Shown here: piece after piece, positions 4,462-25,156 of the stretch | How the letters are laid out: every line of letters starts with the position of its first letter | Numbering within the stretch: position 1 is the stretch's first letter | NCBI RefSeq assembly: GCF_037902255.1 | Contig: NZ_CP147990.1 | Coordinates: 210,001 to 242,000 of the forward strand | Length of the DNA stretch: 32,000 nt | From: Candidatus Electrothrix sp. GW3-4 | GTDB lineage: Bacteria > Desulfobacterota > Desulfobulbia > Desulfobulbales > Desulfobulbaceae | Reading direction: 5' to 3' | Program-made: the position numbers and the translations under genes | The notes under the pieces: generated by a model | Database searches by the model: none | What the model was told of the DNA's origin: nothing | Seen by the model: the letters and a program-made list of their open reading frames with translations, nothing else

Positions 4462-4773
4462 ATGCTTACCTCCATCCCCGCACTCCTCACCCCGCCGGAA
4501 ACGGAACAGCTGTTAGCGGAACGCTTCAAGACCCTGCGCCTTCAGGCAGGGTATAAACGGACCACCCTGGCTGCTCGGGCCGGAGTGTCTCCGGCATCTC
4601 TGAAGCGCTTTGAAACAACTGGGCAGGTTTCCCTTAAAAATCTTTTGCGTCTGGCCCATGCTCTGGGTCGTTTACCGGAATTTGCTGATCTTTTGGCTCC
4701 CCAGGAAGCTCGCTCTCTAGCTGAGCTCAAAGAGATGAGTCGCCAAGATACGCCGAAACGGGGGAGGATTTAG
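4462..4773 (+). CDS. hipB: XRE-family HTH protein, HipB-like antitoxin
   Basis: The HTH signature is LRLQAGYKRTTLAARAGVSPASLKRFETTGQVSLKNLLRLAHALG. It lies directly upstream of, and in frame with, a hipA remnant. Confidence 0.75.
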   Translation: MLTSIPALLTPPETEQLLAERFKTLRLQAGYKRTTLAARAGVSPASLKRFETTGQVSLKNLLRLAHALGRLPEFADLLAPQEARSLAELKEMSRQDTPKRGRI

Positions 4774-5268
4774 CGCCGTTATCATATCCACACCTTTGGC
4801 AATCTTATCCAGGCGAATTTTCGTATCCCGTCCTGTGATTATGCTGATCTTTTCAAGGTGACGACCCTGCTGACCCGCAACCATGGTGACCTGCTGCGGG
4901 CCTTCCGGCTGATGCTGTTCAATATCCTGACCCATAATCGTGACGACCATGTGAAGAATTTCAGTTTGATCCTGGATGGTCGCACAGGAAAATGGTCGCT
5001 GGCTCCGGCCTATGACCTCACCTTTGCCGACGGCCCCGGAGGCGAGCACAGCATGACTGTTGCCGGTGAAGGCCGGGCTCCTGCGTACAGGCAGGTTGTT
5101 GAGCTGGCAGGGCGGTATGGTGTTGCGGAGAAAGAGGTGGAAGTGATGTTTGATGAGGTTGCCGCTGCTGTGGAACGGTGGCCGGAGTTTGCTCGGGTTG
5201 CCGGGGTCAGAGAGGCGATGAGTGCGAAGATTTCTCGGCGGTTGGCGGCAGTGCGATTGCGGGCATAA
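4774..5268 (+). pseudogene. hipA: HipA-family kinase toxin, C-terminal remnant only (about 160 of the expected ~440 aa)
   Basis: The frame opens right after the hipB stop: RRYHIHTFGNLIQANFRIPSCDYADLF..LFNILTHNRDDHVKNFSLILDGRTGKWSLAPAYDL. This matches the catalytic-loop region of the HipA C-terminal domain. The N-terminal and P-loop-containing part is absent. Confidence 0.75.
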
Positions 5269-5295
5269 AGGGTAGAAATGTGGATGCACAGCAGG

Positions 5296-5448
5296 CTGTG
5301 ACGAATCGTTGCACTAGGGTGCAACGGTCAGTTCCACTATAGTGCAAGGACGAGTTCCACTAGGGTGCAACGGTCGGTTCCACTAGAGTGTAACGATGAG
5401 TTCTACTATAGTGCAATGACAGGTTGCACTCCAGTGTGACTGTATTTT
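5296..5448. repeat. Tandem array of 23-bp units (6 full units plus a half unit), iteron-like
   Basis: Units start at 5311, 5334, 5357, 5380, 5403 and 5426. The consensus is CCACTAnrGTGCAAnGrnnrGTT. The cores CACTATAGTG (perfect palindrome) and CACTAGGGTG alternate. The array sits between two convergent gene ends. Confidence 0.85.
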
Positions 5449-5471
5449 GTACGGGCGATTGCCAATCGCCC

Positions 5472-7610
5472 CTACGCCCCCCGCCGCTTGGCCCGCACCC
5501 GTTCCAATCCTTCACGCCATGTCTCCAAAGAAGGATGCCCCATAGCCTCTGCAATCTCCACGGCTTGGCTGATGTATTGCTCGGCTTGGGCAAGGTCACC
5601 TTGCTCTTCGTAAATCATACCGATGTTCCAGCTCGTGATTGCTTCTCCTGCCTTGTTACCGAGATCTTGGTGTATGCTCAGGCTCTGCTTCAGGTAGGTC
5701 AAGGCCGTGGCATAGTCACCCTGTGGCTGGTAAACTTGGCTGATACAGTTCAGCGTTGCTCCTTCCCCGTATCTGTTTCTGATCTCCCGTTGTATGGTCA
5801 GACTTTGCTCCAGATAGGCCAGTGCTGCAGCATAGTTGCCAAGTATCCTATGGATGTTGCCGATGTTGCTCAATGCACAGTCTTCCCCTGCCCGGTCGCC
5901 AATCTGCCGCTGTATAGTCAGGCTTTGCTCCGCATAATTCAATGCCGTGGCATAGTCGCCCTGTAGCTGGTAAATCAAGCTGATACTGTTCAACGTTGCT
6001 CCTTCCCCATATCTGTTTCTGATCTCCCGTTGTATGGTCAGGCTTTGCTCCAGATAGGCCAGTGCTGCAGCATAGTCGCCAAGTACCCTATGGATGTTGC
6101 CGATGTTATTCAACGCACAGTCTTCTCCAGCCTTATTTCCGATTTCCCGACAGATGATCAGATGTTGTTCATACAAGGGGAGGGCGGCGGTATAATTTCC
6201 CTGTGTCTGATAAATCTGGCCGATGTTGTTTAATGCTGTCCCTTCGCCTGGTTTGTTGCCGATCTCACGGTATATGCTCAAACTTTGCTCCAGATACTTC
6301 AGGGCATTAGCGGAGTCGCCTCGTACCCTGTAAATCTGACTGATATTGTTTAATGCTGTTCCTTCTTCGTCCCTGCCATCAATCTCACGACATATCGTCA
6401 GACTCTGCTCATATAGGTGCAGAGCGGCGGCATAATCACCCTGTGCCTCATAAATTTGACCGATGTTGCCCAGCGCAATCCCTTCTCCTTTTTTATCGCT
6501 GATCTCCCGACGTATAGTCAAGCTCTGCTCTAAATAGGTCAGGGCAGTGGTGTAGTCGCTCCATGCCTTGTAAATCTGACTGATATTATTCAGTGTTGAA
6601 CCTTCTCCTTCCCGGTCGCCGATCTCTCGGCTTATGGTCAGGCTCTGCTCAAGATACTTCAGGGCGATGGCATAATCGCACCGTGCATGGTAAAGCGCAC
6701 CGATATTGCCCAAGGTTGTGCCCTCTCCTGCCCGGTTGCCGATCTCACGTTGTATCTTCAGGCTTTGCTCCAGATAGGTCAAGGCAGCAGTATAATCACC
6801 CTTGGCATATGCAATCGTGGCAAAGTTGTTTAGGATTGTCGCTTCACCTGCCCGGTCGCAGATCTCCCGGCGTATCATCAGGCTTTGCTCCCATAAGGGC
6901 AGGGCACCACTATAGCGGGCAACACGATGAAGGTCATAGCCAGCCTCGTTCAGATGATCTGCCCGCTTCTTTTTTTTGTCTTCTGGTAGCAGCGCGGCGG
7001 CCTTCTGCCAGTATTCAGAAGCCTTGGCATAGCGCAACTGTATACGCTGGAGGTGGGCTTGGTCGGCATTGGTTTCCGCAGCAGAGATGCGCCGTTTCCG
7101 GGTGATTTTCTCCTGTTCCTCAATAGCTTGGAGGTCGCGGGCTTCAGCCTGATTTTGCAGCTCCTCAGCCTTGGCGTAGTCACCAAGCTCAATTGCCTGC
7201 CGTGCTTCTTCCTTCAGTCGTACCACCTGCGAGTCTTCGGACTGCACTGTCTCCAAGCGAAGGAGCAGTTCTTTATAATGCCCGGCTACCTCCCTCAGTT
7301 TGCAATCCAAGCCGCTGCGTGGAACCTGCTGTTCTTCCAATACCCGGAAAAAGCTACTTAGGGCGGCATCAGTAACTGCGAGATCGCCTGCATAGCGAGC
7401 AAAGACTTCCGGTGATATGCCGTAGTTATTGACCTGCTTACCGATGGCCCCTTCGCCTTCAGCAATGTTTATATCTCCATTGCCGCTGTGGGGGTAGACA
7501 CTGCCCTGAACATCACCGCCAACCGTTACGCCTCCTTCACCGGCGACTGTACTGCCGTTCTGCGTTATTGTCCCGGAGCCGCTGTTCTCATCACTTTTCC
7601 TCTTCTTCAT
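5472..7610 (-). CDS. TPR-repeat protein (about 12 x 40-aa TPR_12-like units) with an N-terminal Gly/Asn/Asp-rich motif and a coiled-coil linker; putative sensor partner of 7591-8028
   Basis: Repeating units of the form NNIGxIYxxxGDYxxALxYLEQSLxIxREIGxxxGE are read directly. N-terminal residues 26-61 are GGVTVGGDVQGSVYPHSGNGDINIAEGEGAIGKQVN. No canonical Walker A was found. Confidence 0.9.
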   Translation of the reverse strand: MKKRKSDENSGSGTITQNGSTVAGEGGVTVGGDVQGSVYPHSGNGDINIAEGEGAIGKQVNNYGISPEVFARYAGDLAVTDAALSSFFRVLEEQQVPRSGLDCKLREVAGHYKELLLRLETVQSEDSQVVRLKEEARQAIELGDYAKAEELQNQAEARDLQAIEEQEKITRKRRISAAETNADQAHLQRIQLRYAKASEYWQKAAALLPEDKKKKRADHLNEAGYDLHRVARYSGALPLWEQSLMIRREICDRAGEATILNNFATIAYAKGDYTAALTYLEQSLKIQREIGNRAGEGTTLGNIGALYHARCDYAIALKYLEQSLTISREIGDREGEGSTLNNISQIYKAWSDYTTALTYLEQSLTIRREISDKKGEGIALGNIGQIYEAQGDYAAALHLYEQSLTICREIDGRDEEGTALNNISQIYRVRGDSANALKYLEQSLSIYREIGNKPGEGTALNNIGQIYQTQGNYTAALPLYEQHLIICREIGNKAGEDCALNNIGNIHRVLGDYAAALAYLEQSLTIQREIRNRYGEGATLNSISLIYQLQGDYATALNYAEQSLTIQRQIGDRAGEDCALSNIGNIHRILGNYAAALAYLEQSLTIQREIRNRYGEGATLNCISQVYQPQGDYATALTYLKQSLSIHQDLGNKAGEAITSWNIGMIYEEQGDLAQAEQYISQAVEIAEAMGHPSLETWREGLERVRAKRRGA

Positions 7611-8028
7611 CTCTTCGCCTTTTGTCGTCAGGTAGCTGGTTCACCTGCTTGCCAATGGCTCCTTCGCCTTGGGCGATGTTCATGTCTCCATTGCCGCTGT
7701 GGGCGTAGACATCGCCATGCACATCACCGCCTACCGCCACACCGCCCTGTACCGCCTGCGCTCCTTTAAGCTTTTCCTTCAATTGTCTCGCCGCAGTCAG
7801 TACCTCCTCATCCTTATCCGCCCCGACCTTTGCCAACTCCTCGGCAACAACGGCCTTCCGCGCAGGAGAGTCCGGGTTATTCTCCAACTGCTCCACTGCT
7901 TCGGCTAGTGCGCTCTTTTCCCCGAACTTGCCTTGCAGCAGTTCCTTCAACTTGGTGTAACCATGCTTTACGCCTTCCAGGCCCAGGCTACCCACCGCAG
8001 ACGCAATTGCGGAAGTGATAAAGTCCAT
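7591..8028 (-). CDS. Small protein (145 aa): a ~90-aa helical N-domain (Bell-like, putative effector) plus a C-terminal motif shared with the TPR protein
   Basis: I preferred ATG 8028 over the ORF-track start at 8262 because GGAGGA lies 6 nt upstream of it. The C-terminal sequence is GGVAVGGDVHGDVYAHSGNGDMNIAQGEGAIGKQVN. The stop overlaps the TPR gene start by 20 nt. Confidence 0.75.
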   Translation of the reverse strand: MDFITSAIASAVGSLGLEGVKHGYTKLKELLQGKFGEKSALAEAVEQLENNPDSPARKAVVAEELAKVGADKDEEVLTAARQLKEKLKGAQAVQGGVAVGGDVHGDVYAHSGNGDMNIAQGEGAIGKQVNQLPDDKRRRDEEEEK

Positions 8029-8248
8029 GTTCGTTCCTCCATTCATTTGAATTCTATCGGCAATATCCCCCTCATCATAACCCGACATCCTATCTCCTGC
8101 ACCGGAAATATTCCCCCGAACAAGCCAAAAACATCCTTGAGGAAAACCTCCCGCAACTGTATGATGGCTTGAACGGAACATGGTGCAGTTGCACAGGAAG
8201 AGGCATGCACTGCTCCAGCTCATTGACCCCTTGCCCCTGAGTGACGCA

Positions 8249-8803
8249 ATGAAAAAAGACAAGAAGAGGAGATCAAAGCCGGTTGAACTGCTGAGAGCGG
8301 TCTACAGTGCCGCAATGCTCTTCTGCATCCCCGGACTTATTATTACCTTTATCTCACCGACGTTCATCATCAAGTTTGACCGCATCAATCAGGAGCGTGT
8401 CGATGCGACCGTCACCCGACAGCTCCTCTTTCTTATTCCGGCCTTTAAGGAGACAGCTGTGGATATCCGGGACATGAAGTCGGAAACGATGCACGGCAAG
8501 GCCATCCGTGAAGGCAGCAGAACAACAGGCAGGATTGTCGGCAATGCAGAGGACGAAGGTGTCCTTCAGCTGAACAGTCGGTCAGGGGCACCTGTATCCC
8601 TGTCTGTCTCTCCGGTAAACCTTGATGATATTGAGGAAGAGATCAGTTCCTTTATCAATGAAAGCAAGGAGCCGTCCCAGCACTTGTGGGTGACGTCCAA
8701 CTGGAAGTTCGGTGTGCTGTTGCCCGGTGCAATCCTGCTGTTCAGTCTGATAGTCTTTATTATGGCCGTCCGGTCGATCCTTACCGGCAAGACGTTGGAG
8801 TGA
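8249..8803 (+). CDS. Bitopic membrane protein (N- and C-terminal TM helices, central soluble domain), unknown family; paralogue of 29145-29675
   Basis: I chose the start at ATG 8249 (MKKDKKRRSK), which parallels MKKGSKKESR of the paralogue. The TM segments are AAMLFCIPGLIITFISPTFII and FGVLLPGAILLFSLIVFIMAV. Confidence 0.65.
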   Translation: MKKDKKRRSKPVELLRAVYSAAMLFCIPGLIITFISPTFIIKFDRINQERVDATVTRQLLFLIPAFKETAVDIRDMKSETMHGKAIREGSRTTGRIVGNAEDEGVLQLNSRSGAPVSLSVSPVNLDDIEEEISSFINESKEPSQHLWVTSNWKFGVLLPGAILLFSLIVFIMAVRSILTGKTLE

Positions 8804-12956: not shown

Positions 12957-13295
12957 GTTATCTCCTCCAGAAATATGTAATAAGAAAATTTGTTGTGTAT
13001 CTTGAGAATACAGCCCGGAAGGATAGCTTGTCAAATAGAGACCTGAATTGAGCGATTCTGTATACAGGTAACCAAGTATCCTTTTAATATAATAAGATAT
13101 TTGACAGATTCTTTTTTGACCCATTGGGTTAAGAGTTGTCTTGGGAGAATTTATGGAGTTACAGTAAGTTGCTTCATTTTTCAAAAAGAATCACTCAATT
13201 TAGGAGAGAGTAAATATTTCCATACGATATTCTGCCAGCTTAACAACGCACAGAACACAGCCCCTCTTTCCCATCCCCCTCCTCCACAACGTTCT

Positions 13296-13389
13296 CCCCA
13301 AGGGGCGCAAGGCAATCCCCTCGTGACGCAGGATGATCCCCAAGGGGCGCAAGGCAATCCCCTCGTGACGCACGATAATCCCCAAGGGG
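13296..13389 (+). repeat. 42-bp tandem repeat array 1 (2 full units plus the start of a third)
   Basis: Units start at 13296, 13338 and 13380. The unit is CCCCAAGGGGCGCAAGGCAATCCCCTCGTGACGCAsGATrAT. Confidence 0.9.
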
Positions 13390-13447
13390 AGGAACTTCCA
13401 CCCCTTCCGCACACCTTACCGGAACCTGCCTGCTGATTGCGTTCGGT
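13386..13447 (+). repeat. 62-bp element, copy 1 (direct repeat of 14123-14184)
   Basis: GGGGAGGAACTTCCACCCCTTCCGCACACCTTACCGGAACCTGCCTGCTGATTGCGTTCGGT differs from copy 2 at 4 positions. Confidence 0.85.
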
Positions 13448-13594: not shown

Positions 13595-13867
13595 ATGCAT
13601 TTTGAGTGGGATCCGAACAAGGCAAGAATAAACCGGCGCAAACATGGTGTTACATTCGAGGAAGCATCCAGCGCCCTGCGTGATTCCTTTTCAGCGACTG
13701 CGTATGACCCTGACCATTCAGAAAATGAAGATCGCTTTGTGACTTTCGGCATGTCCTCAAAAGGCCGCCTGCTTACAGTGGCACACACAGAAAGAGGCAA
13801 TGCGATTCGCATTATATCGGCACGCCCGGCAACAAATTCGGAGAGGATAATTTATGAAGAAGGCTGA
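13595..13867 (+). CDS. brnT: BrnT-family (DUF497) toxin
   Basis: FEWDPNKARINRRKHGVTFEEA....IRIISARPATNSERIIYEE matches the BrnT/DUF497 pattern known to me. Confidence 0.85.
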   Translation: MHFEWDPNKARINRRKHGVTFEEASSALRDSFSATAYDPDHSENEDRFVTFGMSSKGRLLTVAHTERGNAIRIISARPATNSERIIYEEG

Positions 13868-14099
13868 ATCAGAGAAAGCGGATGAACTCCGACCCGAATA
13901 CAAGAGATCGGATTTTGGAAAAATTGTGCGTGGTAAATATGCGGACCGTATTAAAGAGGAATCCAACATTGTCCTTCTGGATCCCGATATTGCCCAAGCT
14001 TTTCCCAATGATAAAGCTGTGAATAATGCGCTTCGCTCTCTGCTGGAACTGGCAGCGGCATCAACCCGCTTGGTAAAGCATTCCAAGGTGCAGCAGTGA
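13854..14099 (+). CDS. Putative cognate antitoxin of BrnT (small protein in the BrnA position)
   Basis: The gene overlaps the brnT 3' end by 14 nt. It encodes 81 aa (EYKRSDFGKIVRGKYADRI...VLLDPDIAQAFPNDKAVNNALRSLL). The exact family was not identified. Confidence 0.6.
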   Translation: MKKAESEKADELRPEYKRSDFGKIVRGKYADRIKEESNIVLLDPDIAQAFPNDKAVNNALRSLLELAAASTRLVKHSKVQQ

Positions 14100-14122
14100 C
14101 AGGGGGCACGTTCATCTTCCGT

Positions 14123-14184
14123 GGGGAGGAACTTCCACCCCTTCCTCACACCTTACTGGAACCTGCCTGTTGATTGCGTTTGGT
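14123..14184 (+). repeat. 62-bp element, copy 2 (direct repeat of 13386-13447)
   Basis: GGGGAGGAACTTCCACCCCTTCCTCACACCTTACTGGAACCTGCCTGTTGATTGCGTTTGGT, read directly. Confidence 0.85.
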
Positions 14185-15860: not shown

Positions 15861-16077
15861 ATTCTACCTTAATTTGCAAAATACATGGTAACAAACTCTA
15901 GTGCCTATCCATAATTCCAGTGTTTCTACAGCATCATACTGTAATCGCCCTCTCGTTTATCTGCAAGCAATTTAACTGAGTTGTACCGGCGAGTTTTGCT
16001 GAAGACGAGCCGATAAAAAAGATACGGAACCTCGGAAAACAGGTACCCCTCCTCATCCCTCTGCTCCGAGGCGTTCT

Positions 16078-16310
16078 CCCCAAGGGGCGAAGGATAATCC
16101 CCCTCTGACGCATGATGATCCCCAAGGGGCGAAGGGCAATCCCCCTGTGACGGACAATAATCCCCAAGGGGCGGAAGGCAATCCCCTTGTGACGCACGAT
16201 AATCCCCAAAGGGCGAAGGCTAATCCCCCTGTGACGCATGATGATCCCCAAGGGGCGAAGAGATATCCCCTCGTGACGCATGATGATCCCCAAGGGGTGA
16301 GAGGCTATAC
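16078..16310 (+). repeat. 42-bp tandem repeat array 2 (5 full units plus a degenerate sixth)
   Basis: Units start at 16078, 16120, 16162, 16204, 16246 and 16288, an exact 42-bp register. The unit and orientation match array 1. The ~35-bp 5' flank is also homologous to that of array 1. Confidence 0.9.
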
Positions 16311-21591: not shown

Positions 21592-21720
21592 AATAGAGTG
21601 AGCGTGACCTCAAACTCTGTCCCTGTAAAGTTACTACAAACCATGAGTCATGCTAACAACTTGTTAAATTTTAAGAATCAGCATTATTTTTTATTAGAAG
21701 CAAAACAGTAGGTATGCATA

Positions 21721-22788
21721 ATGACCAAAAGATATATCACTGCTCAGAATGTTTCTGTAGGTAAACAAATTGCCCCCATAAAAATGGTTTATCTTTTTTC
21801 TGCTGATGAATATGAAGAATTTATTGAAGAATGGATAGATACAAAGAAAGATAAATATATAAGGACTGAAAAAAATGCAGGTGCTGGTGATATGGGTAGA
21901 GATATTATTGCTTATATTGAAGACCCTAAAAGTAATCCAGAAAAATACAAATGGGATTGTTATCAGTGCAAACATTACAGTAACCCCCTAGTACCAAGTA
22001 ATATTTGGGTAGAATTCGGAAAAATTCTTTTCTATACATTTAAAAAAGAATATCCAGTCCCTGAAAAATATTACTTTGTCCCCCCGAAAGGTGTTGGTAC
22101 GGCATTATCAGCCCTTCTTAGCAATACATCAAAACTAAAAGTAGAATTGCAAAAAAATTGGGATAAACATTGTAAATACAAAATTACAAAAACTAAAGAT
22201 ATTAAATTGTCTGGAGAATTTTTAAATTATTTTAACAAATTTGATTTTTCAATTTTTGATAAAATTCCCCCAAAGAAAGTAATTGAACAGCATGCAAAAC
22301 ATGAAAATCACCTGTTACGGTTTGGGGGTGGTCTCCCCGAAAGAAAGGTTATCGAAGAAATTCCCAAAGTTGATACAGATAAGGAATTAAGATATATCAA
22401 ACAGCTAACTTTGGCCTACAATTCTGATAGTCAAGATGACATTAAAACAGTTAACGATATAGAAATATATAACAAATATAAGCAACATTTTCACAGGGCA
22501 AGAAAGAGCTTCTATCATGCGGAAGAATTAAGAATTTTCACAAGAGATAACTTGCCAGCTCAAGTTTTTGATGATTTTCAAGAGGAAGTCTTTCAAAGTG
22601 TTGCAAATACGGCAGAAGATGACTTCGAAAATGCCTTTACCAAGGTTAAAACAGTTGAAAACCAAGCAGTAAAAACTCCCATAGAGTCGAACCCACTTAG
22701 AGAAGTATGCAACACTATAGACAAAAAAGGTATATGTCATCAATTGGTTAATAAAGAAATAATTTCATGGATCAACGATAATGAATAA
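21721..22788 (+). CDS. lmuA: Lamassu/ABC-3C effector (LmuA-like): N-terminal Mrr-like PD-(D/E)XK nuclease domain plus a helical C-terminal domain
   Basis: The gene is AT-rich. EEFIEEWI...GAGDMGRDIIAY...KWDCYQCKHY fits the E..D..QxK restriction-endonuclease-fold motif order. It is the first gene of a three-gene overlapping operon that ends in an SMC-like ATPase. Confidence 0.7.
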   Translation: MTKRYITAQNVSVGKQIAPIKMVYLFSADEYEEFIEEWIDTKKDKYIRTEKNAGAGDMGRDIIAYIEDPKSNPEKYKWDCYQCKHYSNPLVPSNIWVEFGKILFYTFKKEYPVPEKYYFVPPKGVGTALSALLSNTSKLKVELQKNWDKHCKYKITKTKDIKLSGEFLNYFNKFDFSIFDKIPPKKVIEQHAKHENHLLRFGGGLPERKVIEEIPKVDTDKELRYIKQLTLAYNSDSQDDIKTVNDIEIYNKYKQHFHRARKSFYHAEELRIFTRDNLPAQVFDDFQEEVFQSVANTAEDDFENAFTKVKTVENQAVKTPIESNPLREVCNTIDKKGICHQLVNKEIISWINDNE

Positions 22789-23266
22789 TAAAATCCATAT
22801 TTTTAATAACGAAATTGAAATAGGGCTAAGAATATTAATAATTTTAAATACCGTTTACCCGCGATCTTTAGATGTTGAACTCCTTAATTACTATGATTAT
22901 TTTTCACTTCATACAGCTGACATTGGAGGTGAAGAAAGTCTTCACCCTCCAGTGCCAAATCGTTTTGGAGAATTATCAGTAAAACGAGAAATACTACAAA
23001 GGAGCTTGGAATTTTTACTTCTTAAAGGATTAATAAATCAATCTTTCACTGAAAATGGGGTAGAATTTATAGCAAGTGAAACAACTTCACCATTTATTGA
23101 TACATTGAACGAAGAATACACATTAAATTTATTAGAAAAAGCAAAATGGGTTTCTGATAAATTCAAGAATTATTCCCCCGAAAAGATAAGAAAGTATATC
23201 AATGTTAATCAAGAAAGATGGGGAAGTGAAATCTCATTTTGTAGCATAGGATGCACAAATGAATGA
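22781..23266 (+). CDS. lmuC: Lamassu/ABC-3C middle component (LmuC-like)
   Basis: The gene overlaps both neighbours by 8 nt (ATGAATAA and ATGAATGA). The 161-aa product contains LDVELLNYYDYFSLHTADIGGEESLHPPVPNRFGELSVKREIL, typical of the middle-component family as I recall it. Confidence 0.65.
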   Translation: MNNKIHIFNNEIEIGLRILIILNTVYPRSLDVELLNYYDYFSLHTADIGGEESLHPPVPNRFGELSVKREILQRSLEFLLLKGLINQSFTENGVEFIASETTSPFIDTLNEEYTLNLLEKAKWVSDKFKNYSPEKIRKYINVNQERWGSEISFCSIGCTNE

Positions 23267-25067
23267 GGTAGGGTTTTTAATAAAAAGATTACGAATAGTT
23301 GGAAAAGGTGTTGAAAGTGCCGAAGTACCATTTACCACAGGGTTAAATGTGATAATCGGTCCATCAGATACAGGAAAGACTTACATCTTCCAATGCTTGG
23401 ATTATATGCTCGGGGCAAGTAAAAAGCCGAAGGGAATTCCTGAAGCAAAAAAATATACTAGCTGTCTACTAGAAATAAAATCATATCAAGGTGACTATTA
23501 CACATTAGAACGAAGCCTTAAGGGTGGAGCATTTAATCTTTATGAAAGTAAAATTGATATTCGTGGCACAGCTAAACCACTAAAAGAGGACAATAAAGGA
23601 AGTAATGAGAGTATTTCAGACTTTTTGTTAAAATTATGCAATATTGATAATAAAAAAGTACGAAAAAATGCAAACGGACTAACGAGAAATTTATATTTTC
23701 AAGATTTAAAACGATATTGTCTAATTGATGAAGAAAGAATTATTGAAGAAAATACACCTGTTCGCAGTAAACAATACACAGAAAAAACATTTGGAGAAAA
23801 TGTTTTTAAATTTTTACTAACAGGTCAGGATGACAGTAGTATTGTTTCACTTTTAACTAAAGATGAAGTAACAAATAAAAAAGGTAAACTGGAATTACTA
23901 GAAGAAATTATTACAGCACTGAAATCAGACCTAAAAGGACAAACAAGCAAGGGTAAACTGGAAGAGCAAATTAAAAAAATAGATGATGCAATTCTTTCAT
24001 TTAAAAAAGATTATTCTTTAACTAAAGATATTTTCAATCGCTACGAAACGGAAAAGAACCAACTTTACAATCAGTTATTGCAAAAAGAATCCCGGATCAA
24101 TACGTTAATTGAGCTTCTCAAGAGGAGCGTGATTCTGGAAAGACAATATGAAAGTGATATTGCTAGACTGAAGGCAACATTTGAAGCGAGTGAATCTATT
24201 GAGAATATAGAAATATTCAATTGTCCTGTATGTAAAAGTGATTTGACGAATCAAGCCACTGTTGATACGGAGTCCATAAGACTGGCTATCAAAAAAGAAA
24301 TTGAGAAAACGATATTATTAAAAAAAGAATTAAAAGAGTCTGTAAAGCTATTTGATAATGAAAGACTATTGTTGATTCACGAGAAGAATAAACTTCAGAG
24401 GAGTTATGACGAATTAATTCGAACTATCGAAAGTGAAGCAAGTGGAAATATCTCTAAAATAGAAAAACAAATAAATTATTTTCTCATAAAAAAGGTTGAA
24501 CTATCAAAAATACAGTCACTATTTATTGAATTAGATGATTTTGAGGATAAAAAGAAAAAGATTGAAGCTATTATTCGAAATAATAAAGAAAAAGGATGTG
24601 AGAACAATTATGAAAAAATTTCAACATCAATTTTGCAGCCATTCACTGAATTAATGTACTCAACCCTCAAAGCCATCAAGTTCGAGAATCTCGGCAAGAG
24701 TGTTGGGTTTTCAGAAGATGATTTGGATTTTGTAATAGCAGGAAAAAACAGAAAAGATTACGGAAAAGGGTACCGTGCTATTCTATACGCTATCTTTACG
24801 ATTACACTTTTAGAATTCCTAAAAAACAAACCATACAAAATAGGTTTCATCCTCATTGATTCACCATTAAATCCATACAAACCCGATGAATCGACAGAAG
24901 GCAAAATATCAAGAAATTTAGCCAACAATTGCTACAAATATTTACATGAAAGCACGAACGATCAACAGGTTATTATTATAGAAAATACAGAACCTCCAAA
25001 ATGCCTTGAGGAAGAGATTAATTTTATTAAATTTAGCAAAGAAAATGGCTTTATACCTAAACAATAG
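23259..25067 (+). CDS. lmuB: Lamassu/ABC-3C SMC/Rad50-like ABC ATPase (LmuB-like, DUF3732-type)
   Basis: Walker A is GLNVIIGPSDTGKTYIFQCLDYMLG. There is a long Lys/Glu-rich coiled-coil insert with CPVCKS (a zinc-hook-like CxxC). The C-terminus has GFILIDSPL (Walker B) and QVIIIENTEP. Confidence 0.8.
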   Translation: MNEVGFLIKRLRIVGKGVESAEVPFTTGLNVIIGPSDTGKTYIFQCLDYMLGASKKPKGIPEAKKYTSCLLEIKSYQGDYYTLERSLKGGAFNLYESKIDIRGTAKPLKEDNKGSNESISDFLLKLCNIDNKKVRKNANGLTRNLYFQDLKRYCLIDEERIIEENTPVRSKQYTEKTFGENVFKFLLTGQDDSSIVSLLTKDEVTNKKGKLELLEEIITALKSDLKGQTSKGKLEEQIKKIDDAILSFKKDYSLTKDIFNRYETEKNQLYNQLLQKESRINTLIELLKRSVILERQYESDIARLKATFEASESIENIEIFNCPVCKSDLTNQATVDTESIRLAIKKEIEKTILLKKELKESVKLFDNERLLLIHEKNKLQRSYDELIRTIESEASGNISKIEKQINYFLIKKVELSKIQSLFIELDDFEDKKKKIEAIIRNNKEKGCENNYEKISTSILQPFTELMYSTLKAIKFENLGKSVGFSEDDLDFVIAGKNRKDYGKGYRAILYAIFTITLLEFLKNKPYKIGFILIDSPLNPYKPDESTEGKISRNLANNCYKYLHESTNDQQVIIIENTEPPKCLEEEINFIKFSKENGFIPKQ

Positions 25068-25156
25068 AAGAGTGCTGAATGAATACGTATTTTTAAATCT
25101 GTCTATTGCCGCTTCAATCGCAACTATTCTCCGACAGAAACACAATCGTACTTGCA

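Follow-up and report, generated by a model that had tools for sequence, protein, structure and literature searches.

A 23-bp-phased array of dyad-symmetric sites in Candidatus Electrothrix sp. GW3-4: possible protein-binding sites of an apparently low-copy cable-bacterial repeat family

The closed genome of the cable bacterium Candidatus Electrothrix sp. GW3-4 contains, in a 32,000-nucleotide stretch (the window; contig NZ_CP147990.1, positions 210,001 to 242,000), a tandem array of palindromic 23-bp units (5308-5445) between two convergent gene ends. On its left, both on the + strand, are a gene for a HipB-like Xre-family helix-turn-helix protein (4462..4773; Pfam HTH_31/HTH_3; identical protein WYD84533 of GW3-4) and a hipA remnant (4858..5268) that encodes the C-terminal 136 aa and matches only profile positions 114-213 of Pfam HipA_C. 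The remnant's stop codon lies 2 nt before a repeat module common to other TPR-linked arrays; the left edge of this module, GGGTAGAAATGTGGA (5270..5284), has one mismatch in the comparison locus L009, where the upstream gene is unrelated. On its right is a GC-rich palindrome headed by GTAG/GTAC that resembles repetitive extragenic palindromic (REP) elements (GTACGGGCGATTG-C-CAATCGCCCCTAC, 5449..5475; inverted repeat with 13-nt arms, 92% complementary), inside which lies the TAG stop (5472-5474, - strand) of a gene for a TPR_12/TPR_10 repeat protein with a STAND-type C-terminal repeat module (5472..7610, - strand; Pfam TPR_12 E=7.6e-94). A HetE-N domain gene (7591..8262, - strand; Pfam HetE-N E=8.7e-6) is located upstream of the TPR gene and co-oriented with it. 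As delimited here, neither of these two open reading frames (ORFs) has an exact match in the protein collection. An earlier annotation made from the letters of the window only (the sequence-only reading) had correctly placed a hipA remnant and a TPR gene on the two sides of the array.

Six units start exactly 23 bp apart, at 5308, 5331, 5354, 5377, 5400 and 5423. The repeats and their palindromic cores, described in the sequence-only reading, are recovered by a repeat search, a motif scan and Tandem Repeats Finder, which reports a period of 23 over 5308-5416/5437 (4.7 copies, 77% matches, score 125) and, for the array, a period of 46 (2.4 copies, 85% matches, score 155), in agreement with its proposal of two alternating sub-types. 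That reading had the 23-bp spacing right but the register wrong: the natural unit begins 3 nt earlier, with an imperfect palindrome of 18 bp, GTTsCAC-TAnn-GTGsAAC, and ends with a spacer of 5 bp. All units are on the + strand. Unit 1, of A-type (GTTGCAC-TAGG-GTGCAAC + GGTCA, 5308..5330), is a perfect 7+4+7 palindrome; it is followed by the B-type unit 2 (GTTCCAC-TATA-GTGCAAG + GACGA, 5331..5353), unit 3 (GTTCCAC-TAGG-GTGCAAC + GGTCG, 5354..5376), unit 4 (GTTCCAC-TAGA-GTGTAAC + GATGA, 5377..5399), which is nearest to unit 1 of the E. scaldis array, and unit 5 (GTTCTAC-TATA-GTGCAAT + GACAG, 5400..5422). The core of unit 5, taken earlier for a perfect palindrome, reads TACTATAGTG and not CACTATAGTG. 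Unit 6 (GTTGCAC-TCCA-GTGTGAC + TGTAT, 5423..5445) is a terminal variant, identical in L011 and 1 nt different in L009. The count of six stands, with the addition of an overlooked degenerate seventh unit, unit 0 (TGCACAGCAGGCTGTGACGAATC, 5285..5307), which is in register with the array and identical at 20/23 positions to unit 0 of L011 (TTCACACTAGGCTGTGACGAATC). There is no insertion or deletion within the array. The sites do not share one face of the DNA, as had been supposed, because 23 bp correspond to about 2.19 helical turns and hence to a rotation of about 68 degrees per site.

The same array sequence occurs letter for letter in an independent Logan assembly of run SRR28154589, which belongs to the sequencing project of this genome, and is thus not an artefact of a single assembly. 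The motif GTTCCACTANNGTGCAAC, with up to 3 mismatches, has nine matches in the window, all of them within the array, where 0.10 would be expected. A coding explanation was rejected, as it had been before, since the ORFs crossing the array are all short and overlapping and neither flanking gene extends into it. A clustered regularly interspaced short palindromic repeat (CRISPR) array was also rejected: just 5 bp separate the 18-bp palindromes, without unique spacers of similar length. No promoter-like site adjoining the array was found. The terminal unit together with TATTTTG gives a weak terminator-like hairpin score on the + strand, and in an intrinsic-terminator scan the sole candidate, with 3 G-C pairs, is formed by the terminal unit and GTATTTTGTA (one site, fewer than the 1.6 in shuffles). 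The two strands fold much better than shuffled sequences (z = -5.0 and -5.3), which is a trivial consequence of tandem palindromes, and Rfam 15 has no match over the array, either at gathering thresholds or at E<=1. The local GC content is 0.55 at 5-6 kb and the cumulative GC skew rises monotonically across the window; neither an AT-rich region nor a skew switch lies beside the array.

The array belongs to a family. An exact two-unit pattern searched against 185,579 species-representative genomes matched only Ca. Electrothrix gigas, at two loci, and an exact-pattern scan of metagenomes gave six sediment contigs. There was no pattern match among IMG/VR viral contigs and no blastn match among plasmids and phages. 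Further copies came from orthologous and related loci. In a weight-matrix scan of about 190 kb of non-redundant cable-bacterial DNA (252 kb with duplicate assemblies; loci rather than whole genomes), the dyad unit occurs only within arrays of 3-9 units, without a single isolated copy, and units 1-5 of the GW3-4 array score 23-28 bits against the family matrix. Judged by the exact-pattern scans and these 190 kb, the copy number of the family is apparently low. End units are degenerate.

The dyad is found in seven or eight unlinked Electrothrix contexts, five of the eight being convergent gene ends. Besides the hipA/TPR interval of the window, arrays lie between hipA and a DUF900 gene in E. scaldis (orthologous to the window; three units, with the hipA stop inside unit 1, which is not a conserved trait), between a DUF3482 GTPase gene and a TPR gene in E. 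gigas (L005, L011), between a Mutator transposase gene and a TPR gene (L009), between a TPR gene and an AdoMet decarboxylase gene in E. gigas (L004), in a nifD-nifK spacer (L010) and upstream of a gene for an HU-like protein (L006, L007 and L008; L024/L025 in GW3-4; L026/L027 in E. rattekaaiensis). The nifD-nifK spacer, on a sediment metagenome contig (2385-2721), is 337 bp long and holds two REP-like hairpins and a six-unit array, which implies that arrays of this family can be tolerated inside an operon. In L006, the array lies between divergent genes, upstream of both. The TPR-linked copies vary in unit number (3, 6, 7 or 9), whereas the promoter copy is constant at five. A genome-wide dispersed REP-type element without positional specificity had been named as the finding that would overturn the idea of a protein-bound array. 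The family is indeed dispersed, over at least seven unlinked contexts; however, it occurs in arrays only, apparently at low copy number and with positional preferences (3' of TPR genes and at one promoter), and is thus not a typical REP element.

One copy lies upstream of a gene encoding a 357-aa protein with an HU/IHF fold and an Ig domain. This five-unit array ends 16-17 nt before the -35 box of a TTGACA-N17-TAnGAT promoter in five lineages, namely GW3-4 itself, E. rattekaaiensis and three metagenome lineages, with the same number of units, the same phase and a conserved spacing from the -35 box. In the most divergent pair, core identity is 0.85-0.88 versus 0.28-0.32 in the spacers, the level of random sequence. 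By its conservation, this array is a clear phylogenetic footprint of what would be a functional site array. The HU-like protein has weak Pfam HU-DNA_bdg and DUF4469 signatures. In its structural model (predicted local distance difference test score 74), the N-terminal domain matches HU proteins with probability 1.0, and the whole model matches PDB 4fmr, a Bacteroides putative DNA-binding protein (E=9e-10). All organism-named members among its 639 homologues come from Electrothrix, Electronema or Desulfobulbus-labelled cable-bacterium genomes; no HU-like relative was found in IMG/VR viral contigs.

Related HU-like genes are associated with other dyads at the same 23-bp period. A GW3-4 paralogue, WGN25_10560, has GTTGGGGT-CT-ACCCCAAC, repeated 2-3 times upstream of TTGACA-N17-TATGAT (L028 7670-7718), and an Electronema orthologue has yet another dyad, GTATGAGC/GCTCATGC, upstream of its promoter (L030 9812-9860). 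On sequence grounds, such paralogue-specific dyads are compatible with cognate protein-site pairs. The array families seen comprise GTTsCAC-TAnn-GTGsAAC, GTTGGGGT-CT-ACCCCAAC, ..TATGAGC..GCTCATA.. and AATGCATGCATT... The order HrpA-type helicase, STAND/TPR, (UPF0175/DUF3368 toxin-antitoxin pair), dyad array and HU/IHF-Ig gene is common to GW3-4, E. rattekaaiensis and Electronema (L024 238-4867; L026 7149-11074; L030 6880-11071), and the TPR protein of the window shares a C-terminal tail with the TPR proteins of this synteny. The shared synteny hints at a functional link between the TPR protein and the HU-like protein.

Conservation within the units follows the dyad. Over 52 units, positions T2 T3 C5 A6 C7 T8 A9 / G12 T13 G14 A16 A17 carry 1.2-1.9 bits each, versus 0.04-0.6 bits for spacer positions 18-23, and units of the same array differ at 0.08-0.16 per core site versus 0.32-0.76 per spacer site. 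Of the 104 pairwise differences within the GW3-4 array, only 15 are at the 12 positions of the dyad core, a result reached by random position sets in 7e-5 of trials, while the spacers show about 0.6 differences per site; conserved cores with divergent spacers also characterise every other array examined. Because the spacers are near-random while the cores are kept without insertions or deletions, the units must be old, with dyad and phase preserved. The variable dyad position 4/15 forms 18 Watson-Crick pairs versus 18.4 expected (51 units), that is, there is no compensatory covariation, and B-type units retain a C-C mismatch in the stem. On the strand displayed, the dyad has more G-T than A-C combinations. 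The polarity of the central TAnn is alike in most successive units, and only L006 and part of L010 alternate. The conservation of specific bases without covariation favours recognition of the dyad by a symmetric, probably dimeric protein over a selected RNA or DNA hairpin. Dyad-symmetric sites, conserved bases, free spacers and fixed phase are also the features of a tandem operator.

Of the lineages compared at the orthologous hipBA-uvrA slot, just two carry the array, GW3-4 with 6-7 units and E. scaldis with three. The five lineages without it are E. communis, E. rattekaaiensis and three further ones known only from assemblies of genomes, metagenomes or reads. In E. communis its place is taken by a canonical bidirectional terminator (L012 6735-6800), whose 3' arm, GGATGCAAACAGGCTGT, resembles GGATGCACAGCAGGCTGT to the left of the array in the window (5283-5299); this likeness could be remnant homology or chance, and a related hairpin arm, CAGCAGGCTG, occurs in Electronema L030. 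E. rattekaaiensis has an unrelated array, GTCATAC-GrrGy-GTATGAG-CCTA (23/24-bp period, about four units; L015 7144-7234), together with REP-like hairpins; it lies 3' of an NB-ARC/TPR gene, in a position equal to that of the GW3-4 array, and belongs to a different dyad family. The three further lineages have no array in the slot. A HipB operator was rejected as an explanation, given that hipB is at least 90% identical in the five lineages without the array and that arrays occur elsewhere without a nearby hipB.

The gene content between hipA and uvrA is different in every species compared. Homology to E. scaldis covers hipA and the array and is lost within the hairpin at 5449-5475. With L009 and L011, homology begins directly behind the hipA stop and continues through array and hairpin into the 3' end of the TPR gene. 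The array is thus the segment common to two mosaics, at a synteny breakpoint and adjoining a REP-like hairpin. The 3' end of the TPR gene is homologous to the TPR genes beside the L009 and L011 arrays, whose 3' flanks likewise bear hairpin and array, and the non-coding part of this module is better conserved than the TPR coding part. From these limits of homology, we infer that the GW3-4 array probably came with, or recombined with, the TPR cassette.

Several features of the surroundings deserve mention in their own right. GW3-4 has lost about 760 bp of hipA, the N-terminal Couple_hipA half, with hipB intact (window 4773-4858 versus L014 6308-7070), by comparison with the full-length 421-aa orthologue of E. 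scaldis. E. communis and a Joint Genome Institute (JGI) metagenome lineage likewise have HipA_C remnants only, and full-length hipA is kept in E. scaldis, E. rattekaaiensis and one further lineage. Within the TPR gene, stretches of 240 bp and 120 bp recur at up to 90% DNA identity (5699-6296 and 6496-6787) and encode near-identical TPR_12 modules. Repeats of this type break short-read assemblies, and Logan contig L001 stops inside them. REP-like GTAG/GTAC-headed GC-rich palindromes (GTAGGGGC...GCCCCTAC) number 11 in 192 kb versus 0.3 in shuffles, singly or as inverted doublets (window 5449-5475; L004 2019-2091; L008 1464-1491 and 5502-5529; L026 5113-5497; L028 7519-7580), the three of L026 lying inside a called HrpA-type helicase gene. 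Outside the selection made by the search pattern, there are nine non-redundant tandem arrays of period 15-60 in about 190 kb, four of period 23-24 and two of 21/42. The window itself has a 21-bp repeat with a 42-bp super-period, TCCCCAAGGGGCGAAGGnTAA alternating with TCCCCCTGTGACGCATGATGA, at 13273-13391 (2.8 double units) and 16077-16297 (5.3 double units); the first is downstream of an ORF (13757-14149, - strand) with 83% DNA identity to the small ORF found before the 23-bp array of the L007 HU-like gene. A low-GC island (21700-25100; GC 0.31 versus about 0.5) encodes CTD6-domain, MC2-domain and AAA_15-like proteins, is followed by an AAA-ATPase_like/PDDEXK_9 gene, and has the look of a conflict or defence module gained by horizontal transfer.

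Phased palindromic site arrays are a known kind of element. The ARG boxes of ArgR are two 18-bp imperfect palindromes 2-3 bp apart, and the Electrothrix arrays are similar in their head-to-tail 18-bp imperfect palindromes, short spacers, period of about two helical turns, conservation of specific bases with free spacers, and location directly upstream of a promoter, that of the HU-like gene. They differ in having 5-9 boxes rather than two, a 23-bp rather than a 21-bp period and an unrelated sequence, and the window copy lies away from promoters. Some centromere-like arrays also serve as operators, such as parC of plasmids R1 and pSK41 and the heptad arrays bound by the omega protein of pSM19035; these share phased tandem repeats, a cooperative nucleoprotein filament (as proposed below) and a position upstream of the candidate binder's own promoter. 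By contrast, the Electrothrix arrays are chromosomal, lie at several unlinked loci without a ParA/ParM motor gene or a ribbon-helix-helix (RHH) gene, and are built of dyad units instead of short direct repeats. The minisatellites of mycobacteria (mycobacterial interspersed repetitive units/variable-number tandem repeats) are likewise intergenic tandem repeats at dispersed loci, with unit numbers that change from one related genome to another (here 3, 6, 7 and 9), but the units described here are old, with near-random spacers and a selectively conserved dyad core, and are not near-identical recent duplications. The literature found on cable-bacterial repeats and DUF4469 describes insertion-sequence-type and protein repeats and not these arrays. 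The family therefore appears to be undescribed, as do its 23-bp class and its links to TPR cassettes and an HU-like gene.

The reading we favour, at about even chances of being correct, is that the array is a set of phased dyad sites to which a dimeric or oligomeric protein binds, that it belongs to a low-copy family specific to cable bacteria, and that the window copy is a secondary, dispensable one on the 3' flank of a TPR cassette, at a recombination junction. Of the three binding-site roles suggested in the sequence-only reading, a generic site array for a dimeric protein is thus the best supported, while iterons and parC/parS sites fared poorly. The six units and the decayed seventh would be 16-18-bp dyad sites for a sequence-specific, dimer-forming Electrothrix DNA-binding protein encoded elsewhere. 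One dimer would sit on each dyad TTsCACTA/TAGTGsAA, with cooperative binding from site to site at the strict 23-bp phase. The alternation of A- and B-type units suggests a dimer of dimers for every 46 bp, and because each site is rotated by about 68 degrees, the complex may be wrapped or filament-like. The five-site promoter array would be the archetype of the family and most likely the operator or upstream control region of the HU-like gene, whose product in GW3-4, WYD84947, is the leading candidate for the binder. The window copy, in the variable hipBA-uvrA slot and away from any promoter, would at most act as a protein or hairpin barrier between convergent units, as a pool of extra binding sites or as portable homology for cassette exchange.

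A number of observations weigh against this interpretation. The array is absent from the slot in five of five other lineages and is therefore dispensable, and it lies between convergent gene ends without an adjoining promoter-like site. A protein roadblock would be awkward in the nifD-nifK spacer, and arrays often adjoin REP-like GTAG hairpins. The core conservation of the window copy could be inherited from a selected ancestral array instead of being maintained locally. The link to the HU-like protein comes from promoter adjacency in three gene lineages only, and an array of other sequence (L026 63-209; GCATGCATTTGATCGGAACGAAA repeated six times, 23-bp period, 46-bp super-period) abuts the TTGACA box of a Lactamase_B gene, that is, the promoter of a non-HU gene. 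HU/IHF dimers, moreover, usually cover about 35 bp and are not dyad-specific.

The main competitor, though an unlikely one, is a selfish or structural palindromic repeat akin to the bacterial interspersed mosaic elements (BIMEs) and REP elements of enterobacteria, spreading with the GTAG hairpins through a REP-associated tyrosine transposase (RAYT) or by recombination and tolerated at gene ends, where its tandem hairpins would protect transcript 3' ends, cause attenuation or affect DNA topology. The resemblance is considerable: these too are tandem extragenic imperfect palindromes with two alternating sub-types (as in BIME-2) and variable copy number, at gene ends or within operons, and some classes are bound by an IHF- or HU-type protein. 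The prevalence of convergent gene ends, a nifD-nifK copy that is almost certainly transcribed, the strong folding of both strands, the terminator-like terminal unit, the variation in presence and unit number between species, and the true GTAG-headed REP-like hairpins abutting the array in the window, L004, L008, L009 and L028 all fit such an element. The units themselves, however, are 23 bp long, mostly in direct rather than alternating orientation and lack the GTAG head that the neighbouring GC-rich hairpins carry, and no RAYT gene is present in the cable-bacterial loci examined. Single-unit stems have just 3+3 bp around the retained C-C mismatch, and compensatory changes are missing. The absence of singletons in about 190 kb, the restriction of the strict pattern to two loci of E. 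gigas among the species representatives, the old units with near-randomised spacers, which were not recently transposed, the L006 array upstream of two divergent genes, and the fixed unit number and phase of the conserved array at the HU-like promoter also argue against it. Another explanation is a transcribed RNA element working through its fold, either a small RNA or a structure in the 3' untranslated region of the TPR or hipBA transcript. The folding z-scores, the position in the 3' flank of two genes and the excess of G-T over A-C combinations point that way, but good folding is trivial here, neither covariation nor an Rfam match is found, orientation relative to neighbouring genes is inconsistent, and L006 places a family member in a non-transcribed divergent promoter region; this explanation is very improbable.

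It is doubtful, and in our view still less probable than a BIME-like repeat, that the window array is a functionless relic, a decaying or expanding minisatellite copied passively with the TPR gene from an ancestral TPR-array-promoter-HU-like arrangement. The synteny of those elements in GW3-4, E. rattekaaiensis and Electronema, the C-terminal tail shared by the TPR proteins, the module of array, hairpin and TPR 3' end that is better conserved than the TPR coding sequence in the window, L009 and L011, the unit number that varies in TPR-linked copies as against five at the promoter, and the degenerate end units are what such a history would leave. On the other hand, units 1-5 still match the family matrix well, the phase is intact, and TPR-linked arrays persist in several lineages and contexts; this alternative, moreover, concerns local function only and is compatible with a protein-binding family. 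The least probable of the explanations, to which we assign almost no weight, is an iteron cluster of a replication origin or a centromere-like parC/parS site. Six to seven repeats at a 23-bp period do have the architecture of iteron clusters and parC arrays; plasmid iterons such as the 17-22-bp repeats at 22-23-bp spacing in the RK2 and R6K origins are similar in repeat number, period and the combination of conserved block and spacer, and the half-site GTTCCAC is presumably similar to the chromosomal parS half-site. But classical iterons are asymmetric direct repeats and have a rep gene, DnaA boxes and an AT-rich unwinding element beside them. All of these neighbours are missing here, and the units are palindromic, in a region of GC 0.55 with monotonic skew. 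The nearby Rep, ParB or RHH gene that the sequence-only reading advised looking for was not found: no Rep, DnaA, ParA/ParM, ParB/ParR or RHH protein was detected among the window ORFs by Pfam or precomputed families (several ORFs have no Pfam match), and the other array-bearing loci likewise lack partition genes (ParA/ParM with ParB/ParR/RHH). Nor is the family confined to one replicon locus, with arrays 3' of TPR genes, at a promoter and between nifD and nifK. Five related lineages lack it at the locus of the window array, and it has no plasmid, phage or viral match.

If the array does consist of phased sites for a dimeric protein, it could be one mark of a wider cable-bacterial DNA-marking system, an extension that we consider speculative and rather improbable. 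Paralogous HU/IHF-fold and Ig proteins would each have their own 23-bp-phased dyad arrays, at their own promoters for autoregulation and on the 3' flanks of STAND/TPR genes, where the cassettes would be organised, silenced or insulated and the arrays would provide homology for swapping.

To our knowledge, cable bacteria have no pure culture, and their gene regulation and chromosome organisation are almost unknown. A phased cis-element defined by its sequence would give a concrete handle on both. The family combines a conserved promoter-linked archetype with a plausible HU/IHF-fold partner whose named homologues come only from cable bacteria. The array also marks hypervariable islands that hold STAND/TPR conflict systems, and it accounts for some assembly breaks and synteny breakpoints in cable-bacterial genomes. 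If paralogue-specific pairing of proteins and arrays is true, it would be a new example of an expanded protein/binding-site code in a multicellular bacterium.

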